In this document: positions 38,467 to 58,957 of the stretch, in pieces | How the letters are laid out: the number at the start of each line of letters is the position of its first letter | How positions within the stretch are numbered: the stretch's first letter is position 1 | Assembly (NCBI GenBank): GCA_902790625.1 | Contig: CADASP010000011.1 | Coordinates: forward strand, 9,856 to 73,855 | Reading direction: 5' to 3' | Source of the DNA: an uncultured Prevotellaceae bacterium | GTDB taxonomy: Bacteria; Bacteroidota; Bacteroidia; Bacteroidales; Bacteroidaceae | DNA length: 64,000 nt | Made by a program: the position numbers and the translations under genes | The notes under the pieces: model-generated | Told to the model about the DNA's origin: nothing | What the model saw: only the letters and a program-made list of their open reading frames with translations | Database searches by the model: none

Positions 38467-38481
38467 ATCCTGCATTCTCTT

Positions 38482-38551: not shown

Positions 38552-38731
38552 CTTCCTTAAAAAAACAAGCGTGCCTACACAGGCTGCAACACAGCCGGGA
38601 ACACTTCGGGCACCGGCAGGCTTAGGGCACCGCCCCGCCAAACAGCCCGTACATCGATGCACACCAGCATCCACCAAATGTGAACACAACGTGCGCAGAC
38701 ATCCTCTGTACACACCATATAATAAAAAATA

Positions 38732-39622: not shown

Positions 39623-39666
39623 CATCAAACACACAGAATAAATAATAAGGAACAAAATATCAACAA

Positions 39667-40539
39667 ATGACCGACAAGCGCATCATCAGTTTCGACTGGG
39701 CCGTGAAGCGAATGCTCCGCGACAAGGCGAATTTCGGCATCCTCGAAGGACTCTTCCAAGTCCTCACAGGCCGTCAGATGCGCATCGTCGAAATCCTCGA
39801 AAGCGAGGCTAACCAGCAAGATGCCACTGATAAGTTCAATCGTGTTGACATCAAGGCTAAAGACGAGAACGGCGAGATTATCATCGTGGAGGTGCAGGTG
39901 TCGCGCGAGGTGCATTATTTTGAACGCATCCTCTACGGTGTCAGCAAAGCAATCACCGAGCACATCTGCCTCGGAGAGACCTACAATCAGGTGAAGAAGG
40001 TGTACAGTATCAACATCCTCTACTTCAATCTCGGTGAAGGCACTGACTATCTCTACCATGGCACCACGCAGTTCGTGGGGGTACACACCAAGAAATGTCT
40101 GACGATGACAAAGAAAGAGCGCGATGCCCTCGGAGTTTCGTCGACGGCAGATGTCTTCCCGGAGTACTACCTCATTCGCGTCAACGAGTTCAATCAAATG
40201 GCCACCACACCGCTCGAAGAGTGGCTCGACTACCTGAAGAACCAGCACATCAGCCCCGACACTACCGCCCCTGGACTTCAGGAGGCTCGGCAGAAGCTGG
40301 AAGTGATGAACATGACACGCAACGAAAGGCTTGCCTACGAGCGACATCTGGAGAACTTGATGATTGAGAAGGATGTCATAGAGACAGCACAGGCCGACGG
40401 CTATGAACAAGGTCGCGAAGAGACTGCTATGAAGATTGCTCAGCGCATGCTGGCTGTCGGCATTCAGCCAGATATCGTTGCACAGACAACGGGCATCACA
40501 GTAGAGCAGCTCGAAACCTACGAAAAGCCCACTCGATAA
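39667..40539 (+). CDS. Rpn family PD-(D/E)XK nuclease-like protein (copy 3)
   Basis: Same motifs; first ~140 nt nearly identical to copy 2. Confidence 0.9.
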   Translation: MTDKRIISFDWAVKRMLRDKANFGILEGLFQVLTGRQMRIVEILESEANQQDATDKFNRVDIKAKDENGEIIIVEVQVSREVHYFERILYGVSKAITEHICLGETYNQVKKVYSINILYFNLGEGTDYLYHGTTQFVGVHTKKCLTMTKKERDALGVSSTADVFPEYYLIRVNEFNQMATTPLEEWLDYLKNQHISPDTTAPGLQEARQKLEVMNMTRNERLAYERHLENLMIEKDVIETAQADGYEQGREETAMKIAQRMLAVGIQPDIVAQTTGITVEQLETYEKPTR

Positions 40540-40577
40540 CATATAGACGAAGAGAACAATAAAAAAAGAACGACATA

Positions 40578-41792
40578 ATGAAAAGACTGAACCTGAAAAC
40601 CTGGCTCCTGGCAGCTTCTGCTGCGGTCGCCTTCACAGGCTGCGACCTGATGAAGGAAGACCTCGAAGACTGTCCCACAGGCCTGTATGTCAACTTTGTC
40701 TACGACTACAACATACAGCGTTCCGACATGTTCAAGGACCACGTCGGAGCTGTGATGCTCTATGTCTACGACGACCAAAACCGCATGGTGGCAAAGAAGA
40801 TCGTCGGCGACGGATTCTTCAAGGCATATGGCCGTTATGTACACATCTCTGAGGAAGAGTTGCAGCCCGGCACCTATAGCCTCCTCGCCGTGGCCATGCA
40901 GAAGAACTTCAGCGACGCCCTCGCAGCACCCGGTGCCAAGTACCGTGTGGCCGGCGACGCCATCGGCGACCAGCGCTCGCAGCTCTCCATCACCCTCGAC
41001 CACAGCCCCGCGCCGGCACTCGCCCCGTCTGTTGTGGCACTGCCCGGCACTCGCGCCACCACATTCGTGTCCACCGTGGCACCCTTAGACACCCTGTGGC
41101 ACACCCTCAGCACCATCGTCACACCCGCCAGCCAGCATCCTCTGCAGCTGACACCCGCCATGCTCACCCCCGCTGCCACCGAGTATACCTGGCAGCGCGA
41201 CGGCAGCATCAAGAGCAACGGCGTGAGCACCGTCACCGTGGTCAAGGGAGAACCCACCTACGCCACCATGAGCCTCATCCGCGACACCAAGCACCTGAAC
41301 ATCTCGCTGCGAGAGCTCGATACCCCGGAGAATGTGGTTGACACCGACTATGATGTCTTCATTATCGATGACAATTCCTACCTCGACTGTGATAATAATC
41401 TGGTTCAGCGGGGTGACAGTGTCATCTACAGACCCTATGCACAGTGGACTACTATCTTTGATGGCAAAGGTTTGGTAGCCAATGAGCATTCGGCGCACTA
41501 TGACTTGATGTTCAATCGCATGATGTACAACGCTACTAATGCCGATGATAATGCCATTCTATGCATACGCAAGAAGAGCACAGGACAGGAAGTTGCTGTC
41601 ATCAACCTGCCTTACATCCTCAGTCAAGGACGCACGGCATACGAGATTAATGCTTACCAGCCACAAGAGTACCTCGACCGTGAATATGATTATCGTTTGG
41701 AGTTCTTCATCAAGAATGGTCGTTGGCTCTTTATCGACATTCATATCGATATCCTGTCATGGGCTAAACGGATACAATATGTGGATCTTTAA
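40578..41792 (+). CDS. FimB/Mfa2-family anchor pilin
   Basis: Lipobox FTGC followed by DLMKEDLEDCPTGLYVNFVYDYN; no early TR propeptide site; DTLWH, MSLIRDTK.L.I.L, YLDREYDY.L.FF, I.ILSWA.RIQ..DL. Confidence 0.9.
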   Translation: MKRLNLKTWLLAASAAVAFTGCDLMKEDLEDCPTGLYVNFVYDYNIQRSDMFKDHVGAVMLYVYDDQNRMVAKKIVGDGFFKAYGRYVHISEEELQPGTYSLLAVAMQKNFSDALAAPGAKYRVAGDAIGDQRSQLSITLDHSPAPALAPSVVALPGTRATTFVSTVAPLDTLWHTLSTIVTPASQHPLQLTPAMLTPAATEYTWQRDGSIKSNGVSTVTVVKGEPTYATMSLIRDTKHLNISLRELDTPENVVDTDYDVFIIDDNSYLDCDNNLVQRGDSVIYRPYAQWTTIFDGKGLVANEHSAHYDLMFNRMMYNATNADDNAILCIRKKSTGQEVAVINLPYILSQGRTAYEINAYQPQEYLDREYDYRLEFFIKNGRWLFIDIHIDILSWAKRIQYVDL

Positions 41793-41842
41793 ATAATGAA
41801 TGTACCGCTACGATATTTTACCATAATTTTTTAGATAAAAAT

Positions 41843-43438
41843 ATGATGATGAATAACTGGGTTTGGAAAGCGATGTCGGTGTTGCTGGCATTGCCACTGC
41901 TCGTGGCATGCCAATGGATAACCGAGGATCACGCCTGGGATGATGGCATCATCAATTCTGATGATAATTTAAATAGGCGCTTTGTCAACTTCAGCATCAG
42001 CGTCAATACCGGCAATAATCCAACACGTGCCGGGGAGACTCCATTGGGTGGAGAGAATGGTGATGGACGCGAGGCAGGCTTCCATCGTGAGAATACGGTC
42101 ACAGGCGCAACCTTTTTCTTCTATCAGGATGATAATGGCATTAATTGCCAGGGCGGAACGCAAATAGTGCATGAGGTCTATTATGTTTTTACACCAGAAA
42201 CCATTAAACGCGATAATGCAGGAACTGAAGAGGCTGACTTGAACAACGATACACGTCCAGGTATCACTCCTGATGAGTATGTATTCACCACAGGCGACCA
42301 GCTGCTCGATGAGGCTATCAAACCTGCATCAGCCTATCATGTCATTGCTGTACTCAATGCCAACTTAACAGGGAAAAACCTCAATACGGTGGAAAAAGTG
42401 CGCAACTACACCTTCACGCAAATTTATAATTCTAACAATAGCAATAATCCTGAGCAGTTCTCAGATTTCATCATGACCTCTGAGCAGGACTATACCATGC
42501 AACTCAGCGACGGCAATGCATGGGAAATCACTTCTACTCCTACGGCAGATTATTATCGCGCCAAGAATTTCATTCGCGTGGAGCGCCTCACTGCCCGCAT
42601 TGATTTCTGGGCTGCTGGTTCCAATGGATACAAAGATACTTATAGCACACCAGGCTATGAGTATACCGTGAAAAAATCCAATGGCGACCCAACAAATGAC
42701 CGTTTCGTGCTCACGGGCGTCATGCCTTTCAATCTCAATGCAGGCAATGGAACCAGTGGAGGGGAATTCCTTATCAAACGACTGGCATCAGACATGACCA
42801 ACGACCGTGTTATCACCTATTTGGCAGATGAGACCACCACCAATTATGTCATCGACCCCGCAACGCTGAACAAAACGGATGGAAACCTCACCTATTATCA
42901 AAATACACTTGCCAGTTTGGTGCCCTCGGGAGGTACTTCCCTTGCTGATGTCACCACGTTAGCTAACAACAGCCGGTATCATAGTGTGGCTGCACGCCAT
43001 GCAGCAGTGCTTGCCGAGGGGAGCAGTGCAGGCTTCACCACACTTACCGACAACGGGCGCTCGGGTGAGGACATCATTGTGGGCTATCCTATGGAGAACA
43101 CCCTTTGGAGCGCATCGCTGCTCTATAATTATGCCACAGGATTAGCCCTGGAGGGCGACTATTATGCCGGTGGAACCGGTACCCCGGAACACCGTGTGTA
43201 CTACGGTTACCTTCGCCATCAAGGAACGGCCTCTTCCTACCAGGCATTGCGGGGTGAAGACATGCCTACAGATGCCACTGCTGTAGGCAGTGTCGCCATG
43301 GAGTATGGTATCGTGCGTAACAACATCTACCGTATCTGTATTCAGAGCATCACTTCTGATGTGGAGAATCCAAAAATCACCCTACTTATAAAGGTCAAGA
43401 AATGGGATAAGTTCGTGCATACGCCCATCATCATGTAG
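41843..43438 (+). CDS. Minor type V pilin A (cassette 1)
   Basis: Lipobox LVAC-QW; NPTR|A; GGENGDGREAG, FIMTSE, VERLTARIDF, GYPMENT, C-terminal YGIVRNNIYRI.I...KKW. Confidence 0.85.
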   Translation: MMMNNWVWKAMSVLLALPLLVACQWITEDHAWDDGIINSDDNLNRRFVNFSISVNTGNNPTRAGETPLGGENGDGREAGFHRENTVTGATFFFYQDDNGINCQGGTQIVHEVYYVFTPETIKRDNAGTEEADLNNDTRPGITPDEYVFTTGDQLLDEAIKPASAYHVIAVLNANLTGKNLNTVEKVRNYTFTQIYNSNNSNNPEQFSDFIMTSEQDYTMQLSDGNAWEITSTPTADYYRAKNFIRVERLTARIDFWAAGSNGYKDTYSTPGYEYTVKKSNGDPTNDRFVLTGVMPFNLNAGNGTSGGEFLIKRLASDMTNDRVITYLADETTTNYVIDPATLNKTDGNLTYYQNTLASLVPSGGTSLADVTTLANNSRYHSVAARHAAVLAEGSSAGFTTLTDNGRSGEDIIVGYPMENTLWSASLLYNYATGLALEGDYYAGGTGTPEHRVYYGYLRHQGTASSYQALRGEDMPTDATAVGSVAMEYGIVRNNIYRICIQSITSDVENPKITLLIKVKKWDKFVHTPIIM

Positions 43439-43483
43439 CCGACAGCCCCATAACAACGATTTATACATCATTAAAGAAATAAG

Positions 43484-45448
43484 ATGAAAACGATGAAGCG
43501 GCTACATATTTATTCTATACTTGCACTCACATCCCTCCTCGCACTCACTGCCTGTCAGCAGGACGATGAGGACAACAGAGGCGGCGATGCCAAAGGCTCG
43601 GCCTTGGTCACCCTGCGCTTGGGCACTGCCGACATGGAGAACACCACCCGTGCCTGGAATGACGACAATGCCGAGACCGACCGCTCGGAGATGATGTACA
43701 ACTGGACGGTGCTGCTGCTCAACAATGGCCAGATTCAGTACAAGTTTGCCGGCACACCAACTGATGCTAACGCTGAAATCGACAATGTATGCACAGACTA
43801 TGAGATGACATCTGGCGCCTACACTGTTTATTCTTTCGCCAACATCAGCGAAGCCAGTTTGAAAACAGTGCTTGGTATCAGTAGTCTGGAGCCAGGAACA
43901 GCACTGACCGACAACGCCATTCAAACAGCAACGGCCACTATCAATGCCAATGGCAAAACGCGAACAGACCTGACGGCAGATGACGCGTTTGGCTTCGGTT
44001 CAAAGGGTATCCCCATGAGCAACCAGCAGGTGCTGGAAGTTCCTGCAGAGGGAACCATAGAGAAAGACCTCATCGTCGTGCGTATGGTGGCCAAGCTGGA
44101 GTTCGTGTTCTTCAATAACACTGCAGTTCCAGCTGAAAATGGCGAGGACTTCACTGTGAAGTCGGTATCTATCAGTGACATCACCAAGGGAACGGCCAAC
44201 AACCTGAAGTTGTTGCCAAATCTGAATAATAACGGCAATGGTCACGAGAACGAGATGACCTTTACCCACGGCGACATCAAGCCCAACCTCAATACGGGCG
44301 TAACGACCGAGGAGGTGAAATATGCTCCTACAACGGCGCTCACCGTGGCTTCCTCAGATACTTACGAAATAGGCAAGCTGCAGAGCAATAGCACTTACGC
44401 TAAAAAGTTCACCTTCTACGTCAACGAGAGCCAGCTGGCCTCCGGCAAGCAGTTCGAGCTGAATGTGGAGCTGGCTAACGGAGACTACCGTTACGCCCTC
44501 GTCAGCACAGGCACCGATGCAGGTCTCACCGTCACCAAAGACCCTGCCAACCCCGGCGGCAACGAGAATGCGACGACCACGCCCGTCACCGAGACCAAGC
44601 GCTCGGACGATTGGACCTACATCGCCCGCAACGACTACCGCGTCATCCCCATCGTGCTCGACAACTACCGTCTGGAGCTGGTGCCCTACGACTTCCCAGC
44701 CATCGGCGTCTACCCCGCCAGCGTGAAGACCATCGACGCGAACACCAACCTCCACGAAATCCTCTTCCACGACTACGGACACTTCCACCTCGTGCCCCAC
44801 GTCTATCGTGGTGCAGCATGGGACGGGACGGAAAATAACACCGCAGCCTTCCCCTGGGCAGGCAAGGATATCACATTCTCGGCTACGAAGGGAAATTTCT
44901 CCAATACCGTGTGGACCCTTGACAAGACGGGTGCTACTGCAGTTGCCGCCGACTGGACCAACGCCTTCTCATCCTTCACCACAACAGGAACAGGCGCGAC
45001 TCTGGCAAAAGATGCTGCACTGACGATAGCCCTCAACAGCGGTACCACGAAGTTCTACGGTGCTCCAGGCACCACTGGCCTGCCCGCTAACAATGTCTAT
45101 CCCACAGCTCTCCCCGTCTACGGCACGAACTTCGATGCCGAGGTGACACACACCGCCGACGGCAAGACCTACTCACAGGGCGATTTCCCCATGCTCGATG
45201 CCGTGACGCAGTGGAAGCCGAAGTCAACAGACGCCTACCGCCCCTACATCTTCGGGCAGATAGCGCCGCAGGAAGACAACGCCGACAAAACCGTCTACCA
45301 CGAGTTCCGTGTGAATGTCTACGTGCAGGGGGAGAGTGTCGCCCGCCTACTCATCTACCGCTTCTACATGCATCTGAAGCAGGACTTTGGTTTGGCGCGT
45401 CGCTATGCTGCGGCTCGGCCCACCTGTCGTCTGCACTGCCACGAATGA
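43484..45448 (+). CDS. Minor type V pilin B (cassette 1)
   Basis: Lipobox LTAC; NTTR|A; GIPMSN, VRMVAKLEF.F.N, FYVNES, IARNDYRVIPI. Confidence 0.85.
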   Translation: MKTMKRLHIYSILALTSLLALTACQQDDEDNRGGDAKGSALVTLRLGTADMENTTRAWNDDNAETDRSEMMYNWTVLLLNNGQIQYKFAGTPTDANAEIDNVCTDYEMTSGAYTVYSFANISEASLKTVLGISSLEPGTALTDNAIQTATATINANGKTRTDLTADDAFGFGSKGIPMSNQQVLEVPAEGTIEKDLIVVRMVAKLEFVFFNNTAVPAENGEDFTVKSVSISDITKGTANNLKLLPNLNNNGNGHENEMTFTHGDIKPNLNTGVTTEEVKYAPTTALTVASSDTYEIGKLQSNSTYAKKFTFYVNESQLASGKQFELNVELANGDYRYALVSTGTDAGLTVTKDPANPGGNENATTTPVTETKRSDDWTYIARNDYRVIPIVLDNYRLELVPYDFPAIGVYPASVKTIDANTNLHEILFHDYGHFHLVPHVYRGAAWDGTENNTAAFPWAGKDITFSATKGNFSNTVWTLDKTGATAVAADWTNAFSSFTTTGTGATLAKDAALTIALNSGTTKFYGAPGTTGLPANNVYPTALPVYGTNFDAEVTHTADGKTYSQGDFPMLDAVTQWKPKSTDAYRPYIFGQIAPQEDNADKTVYHEFRVNVYVQGESVARLLIYRFYMHLKQDFGLARRYAAARPTCRLHCHE

Positions 45449-47080: not shown

Positions 47081-50000
47081 ATGAAACAGATTTTTAAGAT
47101 AAACAACAACAACAAAGTGCAACACACTGCTGCCGCCGCCCCGCTGGCTGGGCGGCAAAAGCACAAGCACTACAGAACCACAACAGCCACGACAGGCCTC
47201 GCCTGCCGGGCCTTGCTCGTCCTCGCACTCCTCATGGGGTGGGGGAGCAGAGCCACGGCACAAGGGGAATGGGAACTTTGGACTGGTAACACACATAATA
47301 ATCGTAATTCAATAGCGTTCGATGATTTTCCCTCCAGTTTAGATGACTATAATGTTTTTCGTATATATACGTCAGATAACGGTGTTGGCACTATCTCTAC
47401 AGGTTGGAGTAACTCTGTTCTTAAATCAGGGGCTACTTCAATACCTCAAGGCAAGTATTATGTTCAAGAGTTGAATTGCTATCAGATACCTCTGTCTGAA
47501 TTTGATGACCTTCTTAATAAGGTAAAAAATCAGAGTGGTTTGATTATAGCTACAGGATGGGAACAATATCTCACAAAAGTTTCTTTGGCCAAGTCGATAA
47601 TTGTAGACTTTGAGTTTGACGGCACGCCCACAAATACCGACATCACTCAGACGCTTGACAGCCGCACAGACGTAACTTCTGTTACGCTTGACTGGACAGG
47701 GGCAAAGACCACTCCTGCTATCACGTCGACAGGCTATAAGTATGCCCGTTTCTATGTGGTAGACCAGAGCGGCACGCCCTTGTCGCCCACTGACAATGCA
47801 CATAAGTTGACTGTCAATGGTGGAACTGCTTGCGTTAAAGCCACCAGCGGCTATTATGTCTATAGTGGCGGCAGCGACATAACCCTACCCATTGTGACAC
47901 TGTCCTGCACTGGAGGCGACGTGCGCGATTACAGTGTCGTTTGCTGGTTAGCCACCACTACCGACAACATCAATGCCACGGGCAACGACGTGGCTGAGGA
48001 ACCAGACATTGACGTGAGCTATACCTATAGTTTCGTGAAACCTGCACTGACAGAGACCGTCTACAAGACGGGCGACATCGCATGGGGCACCACCATGCAG
48101 GCCGATGCCTCCGAGGGCGCTCCTACAGACTGGGACGTTACTTGGGCCGAGCTTTCGCGCGAGCAGCGTGTTGTGTGGTATGTCACCGACGGCACCACGA
48201 AGCAGACGCTGGCCCTTGGCACGGCTGCGCAAGCCAATACATGGGTGCTGAACCTGCCTACCGACAAGTTCACCGTCAGCAGCAACGAGGCAGTGCTCAC
48301 CGGCCAGACCACCTTCACCGCTACCGAGTGGGACACCTGGGGCAAGCCCGCCCTCATAGCCCCGAGCGGCATGGCCTACGCCGATGTCCATACCTACAAA
48401 GTGGTTTGCGAGGTCTACGAGACCGCCGCTGGCACCGTGCCCAACGTGCGCTACACCTTCTCCTTCACCAAGGACTTCCTCGGCGAGCTGAAGAGCGGCG
48501 TGACGGCCACCACCGTGCCCGTCGTCCTGGCTGATGCCAACGCCACGAGCCACGAGCTGACCGACATCACCCTGCCCACCGGGGCTAAGTATGCCCGTTT
48601 CTACCTGACTGATGTCACCGGCACACCTGTTGACCCCACGGGCAAGCTCAGCGTAAGCGGCACAGTCAGCACCGTGAGCGGTCATGCCGAATACGGCTAT
48701 TATATATATAATGAAAGTGGCATCGCCTCGACGCCTACCGTGACGTTGACACTCTCGGATGCCACGCTCAACCAGTACCGCGTGGTGATGGTCGCCTCGG
48801 CCGACAACGCTGTCACCGATGGCGGAGCCGTCGTCAACGAGCCGGACTATGACGCGCAGACCACCTGGACTTTCAAGTACCCCGTCAGCCATACCGAGGC
48901 CACGGGCGAGGTGGAGTGGAGTCCCGTCGCCATGACCGTGCCCCTCGACATCGATACCCATAAGGGCAGCGGCTATCTGTCCACCCTTACCGACTACCAC
49001 GTCGTGTGGACGGTAGAGGACGGCGGCACCGCCCAGTCTCTCACTACGGGTACTGCCCGTCAGGCCAGCACCTGGACCTACAGCGTGGATGGCAACAACG
49101 CCACCTTCTATGCTCCCACCGGTCAGACCTTCGCCAACATGAGCAACGTCACCTTCGTCGCCCGCCTCTATGAGACGGCGACTGGTGAGAATGATGCCGA
49201 CAAGAGCCTTACCTACACCGTCAGCATCACCCGCACGGAGTTCCTCGGCACGCTGAAGGGCACCGGCAACACGGATAGCGAGACGGTGACGCTCGAAGAT
49301 GGCAGTGCCGCCACGGTCGACGTGCCCCTGAGCCACGCCACCCTCAGCGGTGCCAAGTACGCCCGCGTATGGCTCACGCAGGGTGGCACGATGGTCAGCC
49401 CCGTCGGCAAGCTCTCTGTGCCCACGGGCATGAAGGCCTTTGGCACGAACCACGACGCCACCTACGGCTACTACCTCTACGACGAGAATGGCATCACCCT
49501 CACCGACGTCACCCTCGCAGCCCCCGGCAGCTACACCGACTACCAGGTGCACGTTGCCCTCTCCGTCGATGCCCCCATCAGCTATGCCGACTTCGCCCGC
49601 ACCGACAGCCCCCGCCGCGCTCCAGCAGATGCTTACGAGCCCGACTACGACTATGAGTACACCATCTCCTTCCAGGACAACTCGATGAAGGTCATTAAGA
49701 TCTATGTGCAGGCAAGTGATAGTGAAGGACAGGTAGATTATCCCGCTAACCTTCAATCTACTGTTGTGGATTACTTCACAGAGCAGTCATGGACTTTGAA
49801 TGCCGAGAACTGCTTTGCCAAGTGGGATGTAATTAAAGATGGAAATCTTGTCCCCTTCACCGCGTGGAACGCCTCCGTCCAGTTTACCGACAATAATAAT
49901 TTCGCCCACAATGTCGATGACAACAAGAAATACATTTACAGTGCTGGTTCCAATTCTTGGGAACAGAGCACCTTGGCTCAGACCCTAAACCAAAATCTGC

Positions 50001-53000
50001 GTTTCCCTGTCGGTAAGTATCAGCTTGGCAGTGTTGTCGAGCTGTGGGTGACCAACGAGAATAGTCACACCGCCGCCGACCCTGCTGACGGCTACAAGGT
50101 GAAGGTGGAAGTCCACTTCAACGAAGATGGCCTTGCTCCCTTTGATCTGATAAACGAGACCGACATTGCTGCCGACAAGGTAGTGGTTCCTGTGACTGCC
50201 TTCAAGTCAGCCGACCGCGTGCTCGACCTTACCGATGCCTTGGCTGCCAATGCCAAGTACGTGCGTGTCTACCTGACCAAGCAGGGAGGATATGACGAGG
50301 CAAGCGAGAACCTGCAGATCACCTACGATGGCAGCAGCAGCGACGTGGTGCAGTGTGAAAGGACGAAGTACGGCTACTACCTCTCGTTGGCCGAGGGCAT
50401 CGACGTGTCGAAGCTGCGTGTGCGGGTGAACCTTACTCCCGACGAGATGCTGAAGTACAACGTGGTGATGGTGTCGGCCGACAGCCAGCTTACGGGTGCC
50501 CAGGAGCCGACATGGCAGAAGAAGCGCGTCTACACCTTCCAGAAGGAGATATCCCGCCAGGTCATGGCCGACATGGCGAACAATGAGCAGACGTCCATCC
50601 CCGCCTTCAACCTGCAGAGCGACATCCTGACACGCCTCGATGCTCAGGTGTCCGACTTCTCCAAGACACTCTATGGTCGATGGTATGTGATTGATAAGAA
50701 TGGTGTAAAGCAGCCCGTTACAGGTGGCAACGGCTCCAACAGCCCCAGCTGGTCGTTCGACATCCGATGGTCGGGCTTGGGCTCTTGGCAGAATGTCGAC
50801 AATGTGCTGAGGTTCTACACTGGCATGGAGTACGACAATAATGGCACCACGTTCACTGTCACACCTGCCTACATCGAAGGCGCTGACGGCTGGGCAGCTC
50901 AGGTGGCTGAGGTGGGTGGCATCCATGTGCCACAGTCCTCCAGCCTCAACAACTATGTCAACTGGAGCGTAGTGTTCGAGTTCTGCGATGAGTACGACCC
51001 CTCTTCTGGCACCGACCCCGACTACAAGTTGCGTTATGTTGTCACCATCAGCGACCCCACCGCCTTCGAAGGCACCGGCCCCGCTGGTGATGAGCATGTG
51101 CAGGAGGTGAACCGCAATGCCTCATCGGTGAATGTGGCCCTGGCCCCATCCTTAGCCCACCCGACGCTGAGCGGCGACGTGAAGTATGCTCGCTATTATC
51201 TTACCGATGCCCAAGGCAATGCCATTGACCCCACAGGGCTGCTCACCGTGAGCTACGATGGAGGCACCGTAACCACATGCAACGTGCCTGAGCACGGCTT
51301 CTATATCTATCCCGGTGACGACCAGCCCATCGACAAGACGAAGATTACGGTAACTCTCACTGCTCCTAAGGCCTACAGGAGCTACCAGGTGGTGGGACTG
51401 TACTCCACCGAGCTTCTCTCCATGATTCCCGACGACTATACCACTCCGCTCAGCCGTGAGCCCAACTGGGAGCAGAAGTGCACCTATACATTCCGTTATC
51501 CTACACCTACCACCAAAGAGATAGAAATCACCATTCCATGGAGTAAGACGGGTATGAAGCTCGATGCCTCTACTACAGATGTAGAGGATGACTGGGGCAT
51601 CTCGTTCAAAGACCTCGCAGCAGGGCAGAATGTCAGGTGGTTTGTTGAGCGTAGAGGACCTGACAACCAGATACAGCGACAGCAGTTGATTGCAGGAACC
51701 GGGCGCAACACAGACACGTGGACGATTAAGGTGGCCAGTGCCTATGCTGTAAACGAAACAACTGATGAAGCAGTGTTGACAGGAAGGACAGACTTTACAG
51801 ATGCAAATTGGAATCAGATGTGGAGTACACCCACTTTCTATCCTCCCACAAATTTTCAACCCCGTGGGCCTGAGTTTGATCAATGTCGCCTAATCTGTGA
51901 GGTGGCAACAAGCGATACGCCTAATGTACCTTATGTGCGCTACATCTATACGATGGAGAAGTTCCTGGGCGACCTGAAGGATGAAGGTACTGAAGGCAGC
52001 GAAACCATCCTGATTCCCAGGGAGACTACCACTTACGATGTTCCTCTTGACAATATCTATGAGGCGTTGAACATCCCCGCCAATCAGAAAATCGTCTATG
52101 CCCGTGTGTGGCTGACGAAGAGTGATGGTACGCCGGTAGCCCCCAATGGGCTTTCATGGACACAAATGTACAATGGTAACAACCAGGCGCAGGTGCTCCC
52201 TGGCAACAGAGAAGTTTACGGCTGGTATTTCTGCTCGGCAGATATAGGTGAACATCATGTCGGAATGACTCATGGGCAACTTGCCGGCAGTCCAAATTCT
52301 TGCACGTTGTCTCTTCCTGTAGGTACCTATTCGCAGTATCAGGTACATGTGGCCCTCTCTACCGACAATCCCTCAGGAATGAGATGGAGCAATGAACACT
52401 CACGTTGGGAATACGCCAATGGAAATGTGGGGCCTGGGCAACAGAATTCTCTTCCCGGTCAGCCTGCCGAGCCCGACTTCAACTACGAGTACACCATCAA
52501 GTTCGACTACGGTTTCGAGGCTAAGAATATCAACGCGGTGAAGACGAAGTACAAGACAGCCATCTACGACGAGACAACGCGCCAGTTTAAGCCTCACTTG
52601 TTCCAGAACTGGTTGGAGGTGTCTGCCGACTGCGATGTGACGAAGGAAGGTCTTGCCAACAATGGCTACGCCCGCTGGTACTTAGAGGACCTCGATGGCA
52701 ACCGCATTCAGATTGAGGAGCTGATTTCCAACGAGCCCTACACGTCGCTGAACAACACCTACGGCTACTATCGCTACAAGTTCGACGTGAGCCACTTCGG
52801 CGACCCTCGCGGTCTTTCCGATACCGGCTATGACCCCACCATCACGCTGCCTGCTGGCTACAACTACGACGAAGTGCGCTTGGTATGCGTGGTGACCACG
52901 AATACAGAGCCTCAGGCCGAGCCTAACCAGCACCTGCCCAAAGATATTCCCGCCCAGGAGCCGCAGCAACTGCAGGTGAAGTACATCTACAACCTTGAGC

Positions 53001-56000
53001 CGCGCAGCGACTACGTCGATCTGCCCTTCGTACACTATCAGGGCGAGGCCTACAAGTATCTTATGCAGATGGGCAAGACCGACGAGGCCGCCAATCGTGA
53101 CTACATCACTGTTGAGGGCACTGCAGGCGCCACCGAGCAGTCGTGGGATTTTGAGCATAGTGTCATCTCCGAAGAGACCTTTGGCAACATCCGCCAGAAC
53201 GTGCACACCGTTGACTACTACGTCTACTTTGACCCCGCCGATGCCCAAAACAAGACATTGATGCTGCCCTCGCAGTATTACTTTGGAGGAGGTAACGACA
53301 CTGAGCCTCGTGCCTACTATCGCTGGTACGACTGGCAGACCGATATGAAATCTGATTATCTGAGCATCCACGGCTCTGAGCTGCATCTTTATCCTAACCG
53401 ACCTGAGTTGACCGAGGAAGATGTCAGCAATCCCAGCCGAGGCTTTTTCGGCATGCTGCTGAACGGCAAAAACAGTATGAATCCCTGCGATGGCAACATC
53501 GGTGTGCGCTTCAATGCTCCTGATGGCTGGGGCGCCGACTCCGAGGAGATCCTGGTGGCTTGCGATGTGTCGCGCTACCTTGACGGCATGGACGACTCGT
53601 TCACCTATCTCGTCCATGAGCCCACGCTCTCCGTGCGCTACATCTATCACATCCTTCCCGCTCAGCAAATTGCAAACAACATTGCAGACGCCGCTGTCGA
53701 CCATACGTCGGGAAGTGCAACAGGCTTACAGGCTGTGGAAGCCAATCTGAAGGCTGGAATAGATACCGAGCTTTACGAATACAACGGTCGCACGGTGGTG
53801 TCGCTCAACGGCACCACAGGTGCGTTCACCATGCGCTCCGACCTGCAGCAGCTCAGCAGCTACTGGATTTGGAGCGATGACAGCAAGACTACTCTTGTCA
53901 ATTGCACCCAGCTGCAGTGGTATGCCTATTATCTGGATGACGATGGCAAGTTGTGGAAGCATACTGTGCCGATGAATGGCCGCGAAACCTCCCGTCTGGG
54001 GCGTTTCACTTTGGCCGACCTGGGTGGCACCTACACTGCCGTTGATGGCGGTGGAACACAAGAAAAGGCTATCCAGCCTGGCGACCGTCTCTACATGATT
54101 GCCTGCATGGGCAATGGTGTTGCGGAGGCCCCTGTGGTATGGGACGAGTTTAACTTCATCGATGCCAAGCCGCTGCTCATAGGTACCGAGCGTACGGTGC
54201 CCGAGCGTACCGACCAGTATATGCACAACGAGCACACCTTGGCACAGGTGCTCGACTTCAATAACTTCTTCGACGAGGACGAGCGTTTCAACAAGCCCAC
54301 CGCCTCTAATGAAAACTATGCCACTGTGCCCATCATCTGGCCCGACGCCCAGTATGGCTTCTGCTACCCGCAGCTCTATGGCCTTTGCGGCAGCAACAAG
54401 TACGCTGATTGGGGTGTCTATGGAATCTCTCCGACTCACGGCGATTACACGCTGCTGAAGTCGATGAACATGCCAGGCGTGTCGGAAGATGCCAACTTTG
54501 AAAACCAGAGTATCGGCAGCCAGTGGTGGTGGGGAGAGCAACTCTACGACGTCACCCACACCCGTGCCGCCAATGGCAATGTGGTCACTGATGCCAACGA
54601 CTATGGCACCTTCCTCTATGTCGATGCTTCTGACGAGGCCCGCGTCATCGCCGAACTGGAGTTTGATGCCGCCCTGTGTGCCGATGCCGAGATTTATTAT
54701 ACCGCCTACGTGGCCGACATGACCGATAACGTCACCCGTCCGCAGGTGCGCTTCCGTGTGTCAACCGATGTGGATGGCAAGCGTGTGCCCGTTGTGACCT
54801 TCGAGACAGGCGACATCATTTCGGAAGGTGCCTCTACGGGCTTCTGGCATCAGGTCTATGGCCACACCACGCTGCCTGCCCGCCTGCACCACATCCTCAA
54901 CGGAACTACGCGCCACTACTATGTGTCGGTGGAGAACAGTTGTGAGGACACCAATGGTGCCGACTACTGCGTCGACCAGATCTCGTTCTACACCCACCAG
55001 GCCAGTGTGAAGGCCAGGATTGTGAGCGACATCTGCGACGATGGCCCTGTCAGGGTGAAGATTGTAGCCGAGGCCGAGCAGCTGCTGAAGTCGCTCAAGG
55101 CGCTGACCACGGCAGCTACGAAGGACGTGTTCTTCTGCATCGTGGAGCGCAGTGCCGACCTGAACCACGAGCTGCACGCTGAGGACGTCCTCACCGGTCT
55201 GGGCTATTATACCGACCAGAATAACCAGCCCAGCAATGAATATAGCGTGGTGTCGGTGCCACTTAATGAGGATCTCCTCACCAATGCCACCGACCTGCAC
55301 GACGGCACGAAAGCCAATACCGGTTTCTATTACGATGCCACCGACGATAAGGTGTACTTCCAGCTCGACGAGCGTGAGTTCCATCTGGAGCCTGGCAAGA
55401 AGTATTTCGTGTCCATCTACGACATCGCCGAGAACAGGGTCGGCAGCCTCACCGGCTGGGGCACACCCTATAGTGGCAACGCCTGTACCATCTACAGTAA
55501 CGATGTGTCGCCCAACCGCATGTACATAGATCTGAGCATCGACGGACAGTCCACCGACGGACACATCGAATTCGGCTGTAACGCCACGACGGTGACAAAG
55601 AAGTACGACATCGCCATCAACTATCCTACGGGTGACGGTTATGACAAGTACACCTTCTTCAATTACGACTTCTTCGAGCTGGCCGATGGAAAGACCAAAG
55701 CCGACTTCTTGGGCATCAATGTCACGGTTGGAGAGAAGGTTATTTCTCTCGCCGACGCCCTCCAGACGTTCCGTGATTGGATGCGCAATGACATGATTGA
55801 AAGAAGTATTCCGGAATCGGAGAGAGACTATGCTGTTCCTGGCACGGTCTATGACGAGCTTCCTAAGCCCGCTGATGACGATACGGAGCACATGGCGATG
55901 TACAACCTCATCAAGAAATACATGGGAGGTGGCGAGGATTGTCCTGAGGGCAAGCTCTATCTCTCTGCCACGAGCAGCATCGAGCGCACCTTTACAAAAG

Positions 56001-58957
56001 CTGGTATTTATAAGTACTTGGCCATCCCGCTGACGAAGGAGATTCCAACCGGTGGTGAGGTCTGCTCACCCTTGGAGTTCGCTTTCGACGTGGATGCTGC
56101 CTACGGCGGTCCGCAGATTGAGCTGGGCTTCGACGATGTGGACTATCCCGACGGCTACATCCGCTCGGTGCGCGTCGGTCTGGAGCAGCTCAACAAAATG
56201 ATTACCAAACCTACAGGTGGCAGCAACTACATGCTCCACATCCCCGTCAGCAGCTACACCAACAAGGGCAATGGCTTCGGCAACAGAATCTATTTCCAGC
56301 ATACGGTGCTTTACCTCGCAAAGACTAACGACCCGTCCATCGCTACCGACGAATATGGCAATCCCACAAGCACCAATCCCATCAAGGTGGGCGAGATTAA
56401 GGTGCCTGAGCACATCGGCAGCGGGCGAGCCTACGTAGGTCCCGACCGCATGTTCCTGCCCATCGACTTCAGCACGTGTGATATCACCTTCCACGAGGGC
56501 TACTACTATGAGGTGGGCACGACCTTCGTCGACGAGGAGGACGACCAAGCTGCCGACCCCTGCACGGGCGACCTGTTCTTCATCATCAAGGTGGTGCCGG
56601 AGTTCGCCACCTGGCAGTCTACCGAAATCATGTCGCACGACACGGGTGTCGACACGCCTACGGGCTTCTACAACGCCAACTGGTATAACGACCAGAACTG
56701 GCAGCGCTCCGTGCGCGGCGACCTGTACAAGGATGCCGTCGACACGCGCAATCAGAACACCGCCACGCTGGGCCATCCCAACGGCTACAGCGACGACACC
56801 GAGATCGATGCCGCCATGACGGGCAACCCCGGCTTCGTGCCCATGAAGTTCACCTACGTCACCATCCTCGGCGGCAACCACGCCCCCAGCTTGATTAAGG
56901 AGCCGAAGGTGTCGACGTCGATATCACAACAGGGCGGTGGTCTGCTCGACCCGAACCTCACCCGTATGCTGACCGACCCCAGCCCTTACTCCAACCAGTT
57001 GTCGAGCGAGCCTACCGAGAATATCCGCTACGACATGTTGGTGCGCTATGGTGCACACAGCGAGGGCGGAGAGGGATGCTTTGGCCACCGCATGATGTCG
57101 ATGAACCAAGCTGGAAAGTATATCTGGGGCAATGACCCGCGCAGCGAAGAGCAGATGACGCAGTTCAACACCGACCGCAAGGCTTTCGACGTGGAGAAGT
57201 TCTATGGTAACATCTGTAAGGAAATCTATTTCAAGCCCGGTGCCGAGTTGCTGCGCCAGCAGCGACTCCGTTACAACCGTGCATGGGTGGAGAAGGAGGT
57301 CAATGCCAACAAGTGGTATCTCGTCAGCAGTCCGCTGAAGGACACCTACGCTGGCGACATGTATGTGCCCGTGACGATGAGCGACCTCTCGATGGATACA
57401 CCCACCGACAAGGCTGGACGACAGATGACAGAGGCCTTCCAGCCCATCAGCTTCAACACGGCAGCTGTCAATGCCGATGCCGACCACACCGTTACCTCAC
57501 AGCCGGCCTACAGCCGCACGAAGTACCCCATCTACCAGCGGTCGTGGAACAATGACGGAGCAAAGGTCTACACCAAGACTACCGATGCCCGCCAGACGGA
57601 CTACAGCGCCAACCTGGTGTACGATAAGGTGACCACCGTGGACATGGAGTGGAGCCATACCTACAACGACGTGCAGGTGCCCTACACCACGCTGAACGGC
57701 TTCAGCATCCGCGCTGACAGGAAGCAGCATGTGAAGACCGATGGTAGCAACTCGGTCGACGTGCCAGCACTCATCCGTCTGCCCAAGGCTGATACGCAGT
57801 ATGACTACTACCAGTGGGACAATACGTCGCCTGCCGATGGTAAGCTGACACATAGCGTTGTCAGGACCACCACGCCCCGGACGAGCTATCCGCTGCCTTC
57901 GCGCTATCCTGCCGGCATCACCGACAACTACCGCTTCGTCGTTGACGACCCAGAGGCCGATGGTATTCTCACCGTCGACATCAGCGACCTGCAGCAGCAG
58001 GACGGCTATATCCTCGTGGGCAACCCCTACATGGCTTCGCTCCGCATGGACGAGTTCTTCAAGGGCCAGCCTGGACTTGTTCCCAGTTATTGGACATTCA
58101 ATGGCAGCGTGGCGTCGGCAGCACTCGCCACGCCGACAGTCATCACTGCCACGGGCGATGACAATGCCGACGGCATCATCCGTCCGCTGCAGGCGTTCTT
58201 CGTGAAGAAGAAGACCGCCAGCGAGCTGGACGAGGGCGAGGACGAGGCCACGGCCATCGTTTTCACCCGAGCAATGACCATCGATGGCAACTATCCCGCC
58301 ATACCTGAAACGTCGCCGTCGCGTCAGCTCACCCTGAGCGTCGCCGACACGGAGGGCGCAAGCAGTGCCGTGGTGCTGCTCAGCGACGAGGCTGACGGCG
58401 ACTACCGCGAAGGTGAGGACGTAGAGACGCTCTTCGACTCGAACCTCGCCGACGTGCCTATGGTCTACACCGTGGCCGACGGCGGACAGGCCGTCAGCAT
58501 CGACCAGCGGCCGCAGCTCGACATCGTGTCCTTCGGTGTTGTGCAGGCAAAGAACGAGCCTGTCGAGGTAAAGGTGACCTCTCACCTCTCGTCTCTCGCC
58601 TCTCACCTCTACTTCGTCGACGCCCTCACTGGCGAGCAGACCGAGGTAGGGCAGGAGAGCACCATCCGTGTGCAGCCCAACGACTATGGCCGCTATTTCC
58701 TCACTACCACTGGTCTGGGCATCGACGCGCTCCCGTCGCAGGAGGCGATCGTCATCAGCGTGCGTCAGCACCAGGTGACGGTGACGGCCACTTCGAACCT
58801 CACTGCCGTCAGCGCTGTCACCCTTGGCGGTGCCAACGTCTTCCGTCAGTCTGACACGGGCAACACCTGCACCTTCCAGTTGTCGCCGGGCATCTATGTC
58901 ATCGATGCCAGCACTGCTGGCGGCATCAACCGCCGCATGAAGGTTGTCGTCAACTGA
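47081..58957 (+). CDS. Giant (3958 aa) secreted repeat protein with T9SS-type C-terminal domain; putative adhesin
   Basis: Long signal peptide (ATA|Q); seven KYAR.YL..YGYY..EPD modules; C-terminal GNPYMASL, PLQAFFV, ED..TLFDSNL..P.VYT and CTD ...GIYVI...RRMKVVVN. Confidence 0.88.
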   Translation: MKQIFKINNNNKVQHTAAAAPLAGRQKHKHYRTTTATTGLACRALLVLALLMGWGSRATAQGEWELWTGNTHNNRNSIAFDDFPSSLDDYNVFRIYTSDNGVGTISTGWSNSVLKSGATSIPQGKYYVQELNCYQIPLSEFDDLLNKVKNQSGLIIATGWEQYLTKVSLAKSIIVDFEFDGTPTNTDITQTLDSRTDVTSVTLDWTGAKTTPAITSTGYKYARFYVVDQSGTPLSPTDNAHKLTVNGGTACVKATSGYYVYSGGSDITLPIVTLSCTGGDVRDYSVVCWLATTTDNINATGNDVAEEPDIDVSYTYSFVKPALTETVYKTGDIAWGTTMQADASEGAPTDWDVTWAELSREQRVVWYVTDGTTKQTLALGTAAQANTWVLNLPTDKFTVSSNEAVLTGQTTFTATEWDTWGKPALIAPSGMAYADVHTYKVVCEVYETAAGTVPNVRYTFSFTKDFLGELKSGVTATTVPVVLADANATSHELTDITLPTGAKYARFYLTDVTGTPVDPTGKLSVSGTVSTVSGHAEYGYYIYNESGIASTPTVTLTLSDATLNQYRVVMVASADNAVTDGGAVVNEPDYDAQTTWTFKYPVSHTEATGEVEWSPVAMTVPLDIDTHKGSGYLSTLTDYHVVWTVEDGGTAQSLTTGTARQASTWTYSVDGNNATFYAPTGQTFANMSNVTFVARLYETATGENDADKSLTYTVSITRTEFLGTLKGTGNTDSETVTLEDGSAATVDVPLSHATLSGAKYARVWLTQGGTMVSPVGKLSVPTGMKAFGTNHDATYGYYLYDENGITLTDVTLAAPGSYTDYQVHVALSVDAPISYADFARTDSPRRAPADAYEPDYDYEYTISFQDNSMKVIKIYVQASDSEGQVDYPANLQSTVVDYFTEQSWTLNAENCFAKWDVIKDGNLVPFTAWNASVQFTDNNNFAHNVDDNKKYIYSAGSNSWEQSTLAQTLNQNLRFPVGKYQLGSVVELWVTNENSHTAADPADGYKVKVEVHFNEDGLAPFDLINETDIAADKVVVPVTAFKSADRVLDLTDALAANAKYVRVYLTKQGGYDEASENLQITYDGSSSDVVQCERTKYGYYLSLAEGIDVSKLRVRVNLTPDEMLKYNVVMVSADSQLTGAQEPTWQKKRVYTFQKEISRQVMADMANNEQTSIPAFNLQSDILTRLDAQVSDFSKTLYGRWYVIDKNGVKQPVTGGNGSNSPSWSFDIRWSGLGSWQNVDNVLRFYTGMEYDNNGTTFTVTPAYIEGADGWAAQVAEVGGIHVPQSSSLNNYVNWSVVFEFCDEYDPSSGTDPDYKLRYVVTISDPTAFEGTGPAGDEHVQEVNRNASSVNVALAPSLAHPTLSGDVKYARYYLTDAQGNAIDPTGLLTVSYDGGTVTTCNVPEHGFYIYPGDDQPIDKTKITVTLTAPKAYRSYQVVGLYSTELLSMIPDDYTTPLSREPNWEQKCTYTFRYPTPTTKEIEITIPWSKTGMKLDASTTDVEDDWGISFKDLAAGQNVRWFVERRGPDNQIQRQQLIAGTGRNTDTWTIKVASAYAVNETTDEAVLTGRTDFTDANWNQMWSTPTFYPPTNFQPRGPEFDQCRLICEVATSDTPNVPYVRYIYTMEKFLGDLKDEGTEGSETILIPRETTTYDVPLDNIYEALNIPANQKIVYARVWLTKSDGTPVAPNGLSWTQMYNGNNQAQVLPGNREVYGWYFCSADIGEHHVGMTHGQLAGSPNSCTLSLPVGTYSQYQVHVALSTDNPSGMRWSNEHSRWEYANGNVGPGQQNSLPGQPAEPDFNYEYTIKFDYGFEAKNINAVKTKYKTAIYDETTRQFKPHLFQNWLEVSADCDVTKEGLANNGYARWYLEDLDGNRIQIEELISNEPYTSLNNTYGYYRYKFDVSHFGDPRGLSDTGYDPTITLPAGYNYDEVRLVCVVTTNTEPQAEPNQHLPKDIPAQEPQQLQVKYIYNLEPRSDYVDLPFVHYQGEAYKYLMQMGKTDEAANRDYITVEGTAGATEQSWDFEHSVISEETFGNIRQNVHTVDYYVYFDPADAQNKTLMLPSQYYFGGGNDTEPRAYYRWYDWQTDMKSDYLSIHGSELHLYPNRPELTEEDVSNPSRGFFGMLLNGKNSMNPCDGNIGVRFNAPDGWGADSEEILVACDVSRYLDGMDDSFTYLVHEPTLSVRYIYHILPAQQIANNIADAAVDHTSGSATGLQAVEANLKAGIDTELYEYNGRTVVSLNGTTGAFTMRSDLQQLSSYWIWSDDSKTTLVNCTQLQWYAYYLDDDGKLWKHTVPMNGRETSRLGRFTLADLGGTYTAVDGGGTQEKAIQPGDRLYMIACMGNGVAEAPVVWDEFNFIDAKPLLIGTERTVPERTDQYMHNEHTLAQVLDFNNFFDEDERFNKPTASNENYATVPIIWPDAQYGFCYPQLYGLCGSNKYADWGVYGISPTHGDYTLLKSMNMPGVSEDANFENQSIGSQWWWGEQLYDVTHTRAANGNVVTDANDYGTFLYVDASDEARVIAELEFDAALCADAEIYYTAYVADMTDNVTRPQVRFRVSTDVDGKRVPVVTFETGDIISEGASTGFWHQVYGHTTLPARLHHILNGTTRHYYVSVENSCEDTNGADYCVDQISFYTHQASVKARIVSDICDDGPVRVKIVAEAEQLLKSLKALTTAATKDVFFCIVERSADLNHELHAEDVLTGLGYYTDQNNQPSNEYSVVSVPLNEDLLTNATDLHDGTKANTGFYYDATDDKVYFQLDEREFHLEPGKKYFVSIYDIAENRVGSLTGWGTPYSGNACTIYSNDVSPNRMYIDLSIDGQSTDGHIEFGCNATTVTKKYDIAINYPTGDGYDKYTFFNYDFFELADGKTKADFLGINVTVGEKVISLADALQTFRDWMRNDMIERSIPESERDYAVPGTVYDELPKPADDDTEHMAMYNLIKKYMGGGEDCPEGKLYLSATSSIERTFTKAGIYKYLAIPLTKEIPTGGEVCSPLEFAFDVDAAYGGPQIELGFDDVDYPDGYIRSVRVGLEQLNKMITKPTGGSNYMLHIPVSSYTNKGNGFGNRIYFQHTVLYLAKTNDPSIATDEYGNPTSTNPIKVGEIKVPEHIGSGRAYVGPDRMFLPIDFSTCDITFHEGYYYEVGTTFVDEEDDQAADPCTGDLFFIIKVVPEFATWQSTEIMSHDTGVDTPTGFYNANWYNDQNWQRSVRGDLYKDAVDTRNQNTATLGHPNGYSDDTEIDAAMTGNPGFVPMKFTYVTILGGNHAPSLIKEPKVSTSISQQGGGLLDPNLTRMLTDPSPYSNQLSSEPTENIRYDMLVRYGAHSEGGEGCFGHRMMSMNQAGKYIWGNDPRSEEQMTQFNTDRKAFDVEKFYGNICKEIYFKPGAELLRQQRLRYNRAWVEKEVNANKWYLVSSPLKDTYAGDMYVPVTMSDLSMDTPTDKAGRQMTEAFQPISFNTAAVNADADHTVTSQPAYSRTKYPIYQRSWNNDGAKVYTKTTDARQTDYSANLVYDKVTTVDMEWSHTYNDVQVPYTTLNGFSIRADRKQHVKTDGSNSVDVPALIRLPKADTQYDYYQWDNTSPADGKLTHSVVRTTTPRTSYPLPSRYPAGITDNYRFVVDDPEADGILTVDISDLQQQDGYILVGNPYMASLRMDEFFKGQPGLVPSYWTFNGSVASAALATPTVITATGDDNADGIIRPLQAFFVKKKTASELDEGEDEATAIVFTRAMTIDGNYPAIPETSPSRQLTLSVADTEGASSAVVLLSDEADGDYREGEDVETLFDSNLADVPMVYTVADGGQAVSIDQRPQLDIVSFGVVQAKNEPVEVKVTSHLSSLASHLYFVDALTGEQTEVGQESTIRVQPNDYGRYFLTTTGLGIDALPSQEAIVISVRQHQVTVTATSNLTAVSAVTLGGANVFRQSDTGNTCTFQLSPGIYVIDASTAGGINRRMKVVVN

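Follow-up and report, generated by a model that had tools for sequence, protein, structure and literature searches.

What is the repeat that fills the first half of a giant protein encoded by an uncultured Prevotellaceae bacterium, and what could it be for? The stretch of DNA that we analyzed, hereafter the window, comprises 64,000 nucleotides (NCBI GenBank assembly GCA_902790625.1, contig CADASP010000011.1, positions 9,856 to 73,855 of the forward strand). It includes an open reading frame (ORF) of 11,877 nucleotides (47081..58957, + strand; positions are those of the window), uninterrupted and in a single frame, encoding a protein of 3,958 amino acids (aa) that we call P0001 and for which we found 69 full-length homologues of 2,454 to 4,724 aa. 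An earlier note on this DNA had described an unrecognized module occurring seven times between 47738 and 53000, alternating with a second, tryptophan-rich domain and proposed to form an extended stalk. The seven-fold motif is a real repeat. It belongs to a longer array of predicted beta-sandwich domains that is new at the family level in the libraries searched, and this array precedes a large conserved body in a protein with the predicted features of a type IX secretion system (T9SS) cargo, whose gene closes a type V pilus operon. In our favored reading, the array would be the outward arm of an adhesin.

The seven motif starts (47738, 48587, 49355, 50255, 51182, 52094 and 52664) all lie in frame 0 of the giant gene, as the earlier note implied. 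They correspond to aa 220, 503, 759, 1059, 1368, 1672 and 1862, where the protein reads (K/V/G)Y(A/V)R.(Y/W). A BLAST search of the whole P0001 against itself returned the identity match only, and the likeness emerged when the protein was divided into seven units (U1 to U7) that were compared pairwise by BLASTP. The E values of these comparisons go down to 6e-27 for U1/U2, 4e-23 for U1/U5, and 7e-21 for U2/U5, the weakest being those of the last two units (1e-2 to 1e-11 against the other units). In a MAFFT alignment of the seven copies, the residues Y, R, G, L, G, Y, E, and P are invariant. We also scored each copy with a hidden Markov model (HMM) built from the other six, using 500 shuffles per copy as a control. 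The real copies reached 24 to 90 bits and the best shuffle of each copy 7 to 11 bits, a comparison with shuffled sequences that confirms the repeat.

How far does the array extend, and is it made of one domain or two? Profiles built from the window's own copies find seven domains of a first type (A) and five of a second type (B), the module measuring ~130-170 aa. The B domains are rich in tryptophan, with 3-7 W versus 1-2 W in most A copies. They alternate with the A domains as had been described, but this holds for A copies 1 to 5 only, since copies 6 and 7 are not followed by a B domain. The ending FLG.LK, which the earlier note gave as frequent for the W-rich domain, closes three of these five domains (aa 466, 721, and 1628). 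An iterated profile revealed one extra A-like copy at aa 2052-2192 (E 2e-19), beyond the range given in that note, and the array therefore has 13 copies. Hence, the seven copies stand but the proposed extent does not: instead of 47738-53000, the array of domains d1 to d13 covers aa 191-2192 (47651-53656), with seven A, five B, and one extra A-like domain in the order ABABABABAB-AA-(78-aa gap)-A.

All elements of the array are on the + strand. It is preceded by an N-terminal cap (aa ~61-190, 47261..47650) that the A and B profiles do not match and that has no match in Pfam. The A-type domains, delimited by HMM, hold the seven copies of the earlier note in order: d1 (aa 191-321, 47651..48043), d3 (aa 471-601, 48491..48883), d5 (aa 727-867, 49259..49681), d7 (aa 1024-1156, 50150..50548), d9 (aa 1340-1474, 51098..51502), d11, which has long loop insertions (aa 1642-1811, 52004..52513), and d12 (aa 1822-1974, 52544..53002). 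Domains d3, d5, d7, d9, d11, and d12 are supported by the leave-one-out scores as well, and d1 by a structural model with a predicted local distance difference test score (pLDDT) of ~90. The B-type domains, also delimited by HMM, are d2 (aa 331-465, 48071..48475, W-rich, followed by FLGELK, and included in the same model), d4 (aa 608-719, 48902..49237, followed by FLGTLK), the divergent d6 (aa 875-1016, 49703..50128), d8 (aa 1163-1326, 50567..51058), and d10 (aa 1482-1627, 51524..51961, followed by FLGDLK). The last copy, d13 (53234..53656), was found by the iterated profile and reads RAYYRWYDW...VACDVSRY.... It belongs to the conserved back half of the protein and is kept in all members of the family and in a paralogue in the same genome.

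The earlier note took the two alternating types for different domains. The alternation is confirmed, but the types are probably one family in two subtypes. When the A or the B profile is iterated on the 69 homologues, both converge on the same 12-13 regions, each recruiting the other subtype. Comparison of the two profiles by hhalign gave a probability of 98.4% (E 1e-14, 98 columns), of 93.8% (E 1.8e-7, 30 columns) after removal of the hits that overlapped both sets, and of 71% (E 3.6e-5, 76 columns) with the window's copies alone. Several motifs can also be matched between the subtypes: Y.RWYV.D with YAR.YL.D, Y.VVCE with Y.VV, and RY.F.F with YTY.F. Given this convergence, the hhalign scores, and the matching motifs, it is likely, though not proven, that A and B diverged from one ancestral domain.

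To which fold and family does this domain belong? We modeled d1 and d2 together (aa 189-468) with AlphaFold2, using a 33-sequence alignment of AB units. The model is confident (pLDDT 89.8, predicted template-modeling score [pTM] 0.77) and is made up of two all-beta domains, with 8-10 strands per domain and some short helices in B, in agreement with the two beta-sandwiches per A+B unit that had been proposed. A Foldseek search of this model against the PDB gave generic immunoglobulin (Ig)-like matches at weak scores, the best having an E value of 2e-4 and a template-modeling (TM) score of ~0.2 for the two-domain query. The top matches are tandem Ig-like proteins, among them the Ig-like domains of PrgB, the S-layer protein SbsB, and T-cell receptors. 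The predicted structure places the A/B module in the Ig-like beta-sandwich fold class. The module, which the earlier note did not recognize, maps onto no named family in the libraries searched. Scans of the whole P0001 against Pfam and NCBIfam found nothing except a sub-threshold T9SS tail, as did scans of 500-aa pieces of its back half. The seven units, scanned at E<=10, had no match in these libraries except three unrelated chance matches (E 0.07-0.14), and the module had no significant match to the curated bacterial Ig-like, FN3, cadherin, PKD, and carbohydrate-binding module (CBM) families of Pfam. Sequence searches of the PDB with the whole protein, with the 33-sequence A+B profile, and with a 12-sequence full-length profile returned nothing relevant, either for the protein or for its units. 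The module, being unannotated, confidently modeled, and of very narrow range, is thus new at the family level in the libraries searched, but the kind of thing that it is, the tandem Ig-like arm of a giant surface adhesin, is already well known.

The distribution of the module is very restricted. We scored an A+B profile against all 1.84 billion cluster representatives, a search of the kind that the earlier note had suggested, and obtained 94 proteins at E<=0.001, of which 86 at 1e-10. The long matches are all proteins of 2,000-4,400 aa, and the short ones resemble contig fragments. The named records of homologues come almost all from metagenome-assembled genomes of ruminant-gut Prevotella or Prevotellaceae (cattle, sheep, buffalo, roe deer, and reindeer), with one cultured carrier, Prevotella sp. 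tf2-5. Among 301 genomes sampled across the same taxonomic family, the module occurs in two, one being the window's own, where it is found in the giant gene only. Across 70 proteins of the family the architecture is the same: (AB)n, then AA, occasionally an extra A, and a constant back half. The value of n ranges from 1 to 7 and the number of domain copies per protein from 5 to 18, as expected if the array is an arm of variable length. Two distant homologues also carry a CBM_4_9 domain within the array (P0062, aa 912-1034, and P0065, aa 742-866; loci L005/L010). It is an insertion mapping to aa ~1939-1953 of P0001, inside d12, and hints at a polysaccharide ligand.

The copies of P0001 are 40-85% identical to their positional orthologues in other proteins and 24-40% identical to the other copies of the same protein. 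The duplications are therefore old and without concerted evolution. We rejected a recent origin of the copies, or their homogenization, because they are just 24-40% identical to one another, and copies so diverged are not expected to undergo phase variation by slippage. The arrays change in length by the gain and loss of whole units, d1 of P0001 corresponding for example to d3 of the homologue P0002. Low identity between adjacent domains is known from natural tandem Ig arrays, where it limits misfolding between neighbors, and it is also compatible with a distinct binding role for each copy.

The part of the protein behind the array is more strongly conserved. A full-length alignment of 12 sequences gives column identities of 0.1-0.2 for the first 1,000 residues versus 0.5-0.68 from aa ~2000 to the end. 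This conserved back half of ~1,900 aa consists of d13, a region with a jelly-roll-type motif, a multi-domain beta core of ~900 aa, and the C-terminal tail. Its body, delimited by column identity and AlphaFold2 and repeat-free apart from d13, covers aa ~1975-3879 (53003..58717, + strand). The motif pair FLYVDASDEA...NGADYCVDQISFYT lies at aa ~2510-2640, and we take it to resemble the ends of jelly-roll domains of the lectin or CBM type, by motif only and without confirmation from the libraries. In the window, the strongly conserved pair is found at 54600-55000, as FLYVDASDEA...LEFDAALCA and NTNGADYCVDQISFYT, and a paralogue of 3,130 aa encoded in the same genome keeps it as FLYIDASEQ... and NGGDFMLDNVEVYT. 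The AlphaFold2 model of aa 2960-3958 is mostly beta (pLDDT 73.9, pTM 0.78), and its Foldseek search identified with confidence the C-terminal domain (CTD) alone. The matches of the back half to the "grappling hook" protein GhpA had Foldseek probabilities of 0.08-0.35 and are not evidence of homology. A profile of aa 2960-3958 finds relatives in 86 of the 301 genomes of the same family, 41 of them at E<=1e-50 and in open frames of 1,400-3,600 aa. The profile of the core also matches a large unnamed set of proteins of ~1,800 aa; its relatives of 550-1,750 aa in this profile search are unnamed proteins only, with no homology to Mfa5 shown. By these sequence comparisons, the back half is far more conserved and more widespread than the array. 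Since the back half is widespread, the array rare, and the 3,130-aa paralogue devoid of it, the A/B array is a lineage-specific N-terminal elaboration of a widespread pilus-operon scaffold.

Both ends of P0001 carry signals for export. The N terminus reads as a Sec-type signal peptide (aa 1 to ~60, 47081..47260, + strand) without a lipobox, with a putative cleavage site between LLVLALLMGWGSRATAQ and GEW; its hydrophobic segment LLVLALLMGWGS is followed by RATAQ. The n-region of this signal peptide is unusually long, basic, and Asn-rich (MKQIFKINNNNKVQHT...RQKHKHYR), and the start codon is putative. At the other end, aa ~3880-3958 (58718..58954, + strand) form a T9SS C-terminal sorting domain of type A, that is, an Ig-like domain of ~70-90 aa (TIGR04183 / PF18962) at the extreme C terminus. 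The TIGR04183 match of P0001 has an E value of 0.002 and 17-18 bits, below the cut-off of 23, and ends exactly at the C terminus; this model matches 8 of 36 family members, with a best E value of 6.6e-8. The modeled tail superposes on the translocon-bound CTDs of RemA and RemZ with a Foldseek probability of 1.00, TM scores of 0.79-0.80, and a root mean square deviation of 1.9 A over 74 residues. When aa 2960-3958 were searched with a profile of 36 sequences, one PDB chain was retrieved, 8gl8_D (RemZ), at E 2.3e-16 (residues 760-1110 of the chain). This match also delimits a RemZ/RemA-like region before the CTD, at aa ~3638-3879 (LVGNPYMASL...IRPLQAFFVK, 57992..58717, + strand). The profile matches the CTDs of gingipains weakly. 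In RemZ, the near-terminal lysine K1110 touches PorV, the one contact conserved among type-A CTDs (PMC10994853). The family alignment of P0001 has an invariant lysine four residues from the end, K3954, which aligns within one residue of RemZ K1110. The same genome encodes SprA (TIGR04189, 2,616 bits). The TIGR04183 match, the superposition of the CTD, K3954, SprA, and the Sec signal thus make P0001 a type-A T9SS cargo on every in silico criterion, its export itself being predicted.

The genomic context suggests a link of this cargo to a pilus. Type V pilus genes span 33262..45448 upstream of the giant gene and in the same orientation (+). They comprise, by Pfam match, a DUF3575 gene (33262-33855), a DUF3868-like gene (33922-35400), a shaft pilin of 665 aa with a Fimbrillin_C domain (36469-38466), and an Mfa2 anchor (40578-41792), and, from the Pfam scan of the region, two accessory pilin-like lipoproteins of 531 aa (41843-43438) and 654 aa (43484-45448). 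The last four have a lipobox. Prevotella sp. tf2-5 has the same order directly before its giant gene, as do other loci whose genes were called. Among 41 related loci searched by tblastn, this order is found in nearly every one with >=8 kb of upstream sequence, and it extends to relatives labeled Bacteroides and to human-gut Prevotella that share the back half alone, at 26-30% identity. From the pilin genes to the giant gene, the + strand carries no terminator-like hairpin; a weak one comes after the stop codon of the giant gene. A promoter scan was uninformative, the sigma-70 consensus being unsuited to Bacteroidota. The six neighboring pilin-type genes, four upstream and two downstream, carry a lipobox cysteine whereas the giant protein does not. 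Nor is P0001 itself recognizable as a type V pilin, having no lipobox and no match to FimA, Mfa, or Fimbrillin_C. In our searches of the literature, we came across no account of giant T9SS proteins encoded in pilus operons of Prevotella.

This arrangement resembles that of the Mfa pilus of Porphyromonas gingivalis, where Mfa1-4 are lipoprotein pilins and Mfa5 is a CTD-bearing, T9SS-dependent protein of the tip complex (PMC8512630, PMC7835359). The C-terminal half of Mfa5 is conserved and its N-terminal half variable, and many strains of P. gingivalis carry two mfa5 genes in tandem (PMC8512630, PMC7835359). Like Mfa5, P0001 is encoded last in an operon with a shaft pilin, an Mfa2 anchor, and two accessory pilin lipoproteins, and it has a Sec signal peptide rather than a lipoprotein signal and a C-terminal T9SS sorting domain. 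Its family is likewise conserved in the C-terminal half and variable in the N-terminal half, and some genomes have tandem second copies. Unlike Mfa5, P0001 is ~3 times larger (3,958 aa versus roughly 1,200 aa), matches in Pfam neither the vWA domain, which in Mfa5 has a metal ion-dependent adhesion site (MIDAS) and is accompanied by isopeptide domains, nor any other family, and in the PDB profile searches shows no sequence match to the crystallized part of Mfa5 (PMC7835359). Its N-terminal half consists of 12-13 beta-sandwich domains that Mfa5 lacks, and its incorporation into a pilus is putative. A second likeness concerns RemZ and RemA of Flavobacterium johnsoniae, both type-A substrates, of which RemA is a surface adhesin of gliding motility. 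The last ~320 residues of P0001 are homologous to RemZ, with the CTD superposing on the translocon-bound ones and the near-terminal lysine in place. However, the rest of P0001 is unrelated, and proteins of the RemA type are not found in pilus operons and lack the A/B module.

The array itself recalls the giant tandem Ig-like stalks of adhesins such as SasG, with its alternating G5 and E domains, SiiE, and the ice-binding adhesin MpIBP. P0001 shares with them many tandem beta-sandwiches of 100-170 aa, a variable copy number, predicted surface display, and, with SasG, the alternation of two subtypes. It differs in belonging to another sequence family, the structural similarity to such proteins being weak and generic (PrgB; GhpA of Aureispira, a T9SS protein). 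In addition, the copies are old and 24-40% identical rather than near-identical, and the array is N-terminal, distal to a large conserved body.

What, then, could the array do? We think it moderately likely that it is the variable-length arm of a T9SS-exported, probably pilus-associated adhesin, tuned by its AB units, whose back half docks on the pilus tip. P0001 would enter the periplasm via its Sec signal peptide, and the T9SS would then carry it across to the surface, where the CTD would be removed and the protein would stay on the cell. The ~1,900-aa back half would dock on the complex that the two accessory pilins make up at the pilus tip, in the manner proposed for Mfa5. From there, the array would project the N-terminal cap outward as a semi-rigid arm of roughly 50 nm, assuming that a sandwich domain adds 4-5 nm, and the length of this arm would be tuned in evolution by the gain and loss of whole AB units. 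The ligand would probably be a plant or microbial glycan in the rumen, because CBM_4_9 domains occur in two members of the family, a lectin-like motif is present in the back half, and the bacteria that carry the protein degrade fiber in the rumen. The earlier note spoke of a stalk. This may be the wrong word, since the array is N-terminal, far from the CTD, and in front of a body of ~1,900 aa, which fits an outward arm better than a spacer between an anchor and a head.

Several observations weigh against this proposal. The position-specific conservation of the copies fits binding roles as well as a passive arm, and cleaning the profiles leaves only moderate support for a common origin of A and B (30 aligned columns). 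In two loci, the direct upstream neighbor of the giant gene is a second giant gene and not a pilin gene. With no similarity to the crystallized part of Mfa5 in the PDB profile searches and no vWA domain in P0001, it is gene position and a shared secretion route that link the protein to Mfa5. Even for Mfa5, the way in which a T9SS cargo becomes part of a type V pilus is, to our knowledge, not understood. For other type-A cargos, the anchor at the cell surface is anionic lipopolysaccharide (LPS); if true of P0001, this would make its link to the pilus regulatory only.

How do the other explanations compare? That the periodicity is an artefact of chance or low complexity has next to no probability, and we rejected it: nothing was found in its favor, and against it stand the BLASTP comparisons between units (down to E 6e-27), the leave-one-out scores of 24-90 bits versus <=11 bits for the shuffles, and the conservation of the repeat in about 90 related proteins. 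The module could also be a known bacterial Ig-like domain that has diverged very far (from the Big, cadherin-like, FN3, or PKD families, for example) and thus be nothing new at the family level, given its generic Ig-like sandwich fold class and Foldseek matches to tandem Ig-like proteins. This is improbable, because the units have no Pfam or NCBIfam match even at E<=10, the 33-sequence profile has no match in the PDB, the best Foldseek E value is just 2e-4 with a TM score of about 0.2, and the search of 1.84e9 proteins returned this family of giant proteins only. A more serious contender, though still a doubtful one, is that the A and B domains bind ligands themselves, for example as a new CBM family, making the array a polyvalent binder of microbial or plant cell-wall glycans instead of a passive arm. 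Each copy might then have its own specificity, in line with the identity of 40-85% to the positional orthologue and 24-40% to the neighbors. Moreover, Tyr and Trp abound in the domains, as they do in many carbohydrate-binding sites, two homologues have a bona fide CBM_4_9 within their array, and the hosts are Prevotellaceae associated with fiber in the rumen. However, the aromatic residues that are conserved map to predicted strands (YAR.Y, YGYY.Y, Y.VV, YTY.F), suggesting positions in the core, and the model has no structural match to any CBM in the PDB. Low identity between neighbors is also expected of purely structural tandem Ig arrays, and homologues differ freely in how many units they have (1 to 7).

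The remaining alternative accepts the adhesin and dispenses with the pilus: P0001 would be an ordinary T9SS surface adhesin, anchored to anionic LPS after cleavage of its CTD and coregulated with the pilus without being part of it. Its type-A CTD is like that of LPS-anchored cargos, and the protein has neither a lipoprotein signal nor a recognizable pilin domain. The tail is homologous to those of RemZ and RemA, which are cell-surface adhesins and not parts of a pilus (PMC10994853). We nevertheless consider this explanation rather unlikely. Against it stand the nearly invariant position behind two accessory pilin genes, even in relatives at 26-30% identity, the duplication of accessory-accessory-giant cassettes as a unit, and the precedent of Mfa5, which bears a CTD and yet is built into a type V pilus (PMC8512630). 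The pilus-associated arm is our preferred reading.

The operon of the window includes some genes that are uncommon in this context. Three PDDEXK_2 (Rpn-type) nuclease genes (35486-36349, 38732-39622, and 39667-40539) are interspersed among the pilus genes; in the related loci that we examined, the equivalent operons lack them. A gene with a Fic/DOC and a winged-helix (MarR-like) domain (45696-46805) separates the giant gene from the last accessory pilin gene. A 98%-identical copy occupies the same place in one related locus (L006) and a 71%-identical copy is found in another (L018), and it is missing from most related operons. The giant gene of some relatives is directly followed, or overlapped at its stop codon, by a small AhpC/redoxin-like gene (L001, 18731-19222; L004, 21337-21834). 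The window has at 59371-59841 an unrelated ORF of 156 aa instead, with no family match and no relatives in the loci fetched.

A second accessory-accessory-giant cassette follows directly downstream, at 59371-64000 in the window and on to position ~82683 of the contig (L042:92-9484). It has two accessory-pilin-like genes with lipoboxes, paralogues of the upstream pair (60025-61596 and 61572-63134), followed by the gene of the 3,130-aa giant, which starts at 63436 and continues past the end of the window. This protein is one of two distant paralogues of P0001 in the genome and shares with it d13, the jelly-roll motif, the core, and the CTD. Its front half is different, with no A/B array and no Pfam match. 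By analogy with the tandem mfa5 genes of P. gingivalis, the second cassette may provide an alternative tip for the same shaft.

These results could have implications beyond this locus. The module is a clean and well-bounded candidate for a DUF-type domain family entry, with a very restricted host range. The class of proteins that carries it, giant T9SS cargos in the position of Mfa5, is more interesting than the module itself. We tentatively suggest that Prevotellaceae of the rumen and the gut might mount modular T9SS-exported giants on the tips of type V pili, combining a conserved docking body of ~1,900 aa that bears a CTD with interchangeable N-terminal ends, the end in this lineage being the A/B arm of 12-13 beta-sandwich domains, although we give this generalization less credit than the role proposed for P0001. 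If it is true, one shaft could be capped by alternative tips, with the choice of the tip and the length of the arm both tunable, and the lipoprotein/pilin and T9SS export pathways would cooperate to build one fiber. The giant family is also a test case for the coupling of the T9SS to the assembly of type V pili. In the rumen and in many human guts, Prevotellaceae are dominant, and how they attach to fiber, mucus, and other microbes is poorly known. Fully unannotated T9SS cargos of 2,500-4,700 aa in the position of Mfa5, conserved in the proposed docking half and variable in the outer one, are a testable candidate for their main long-range adhesin.

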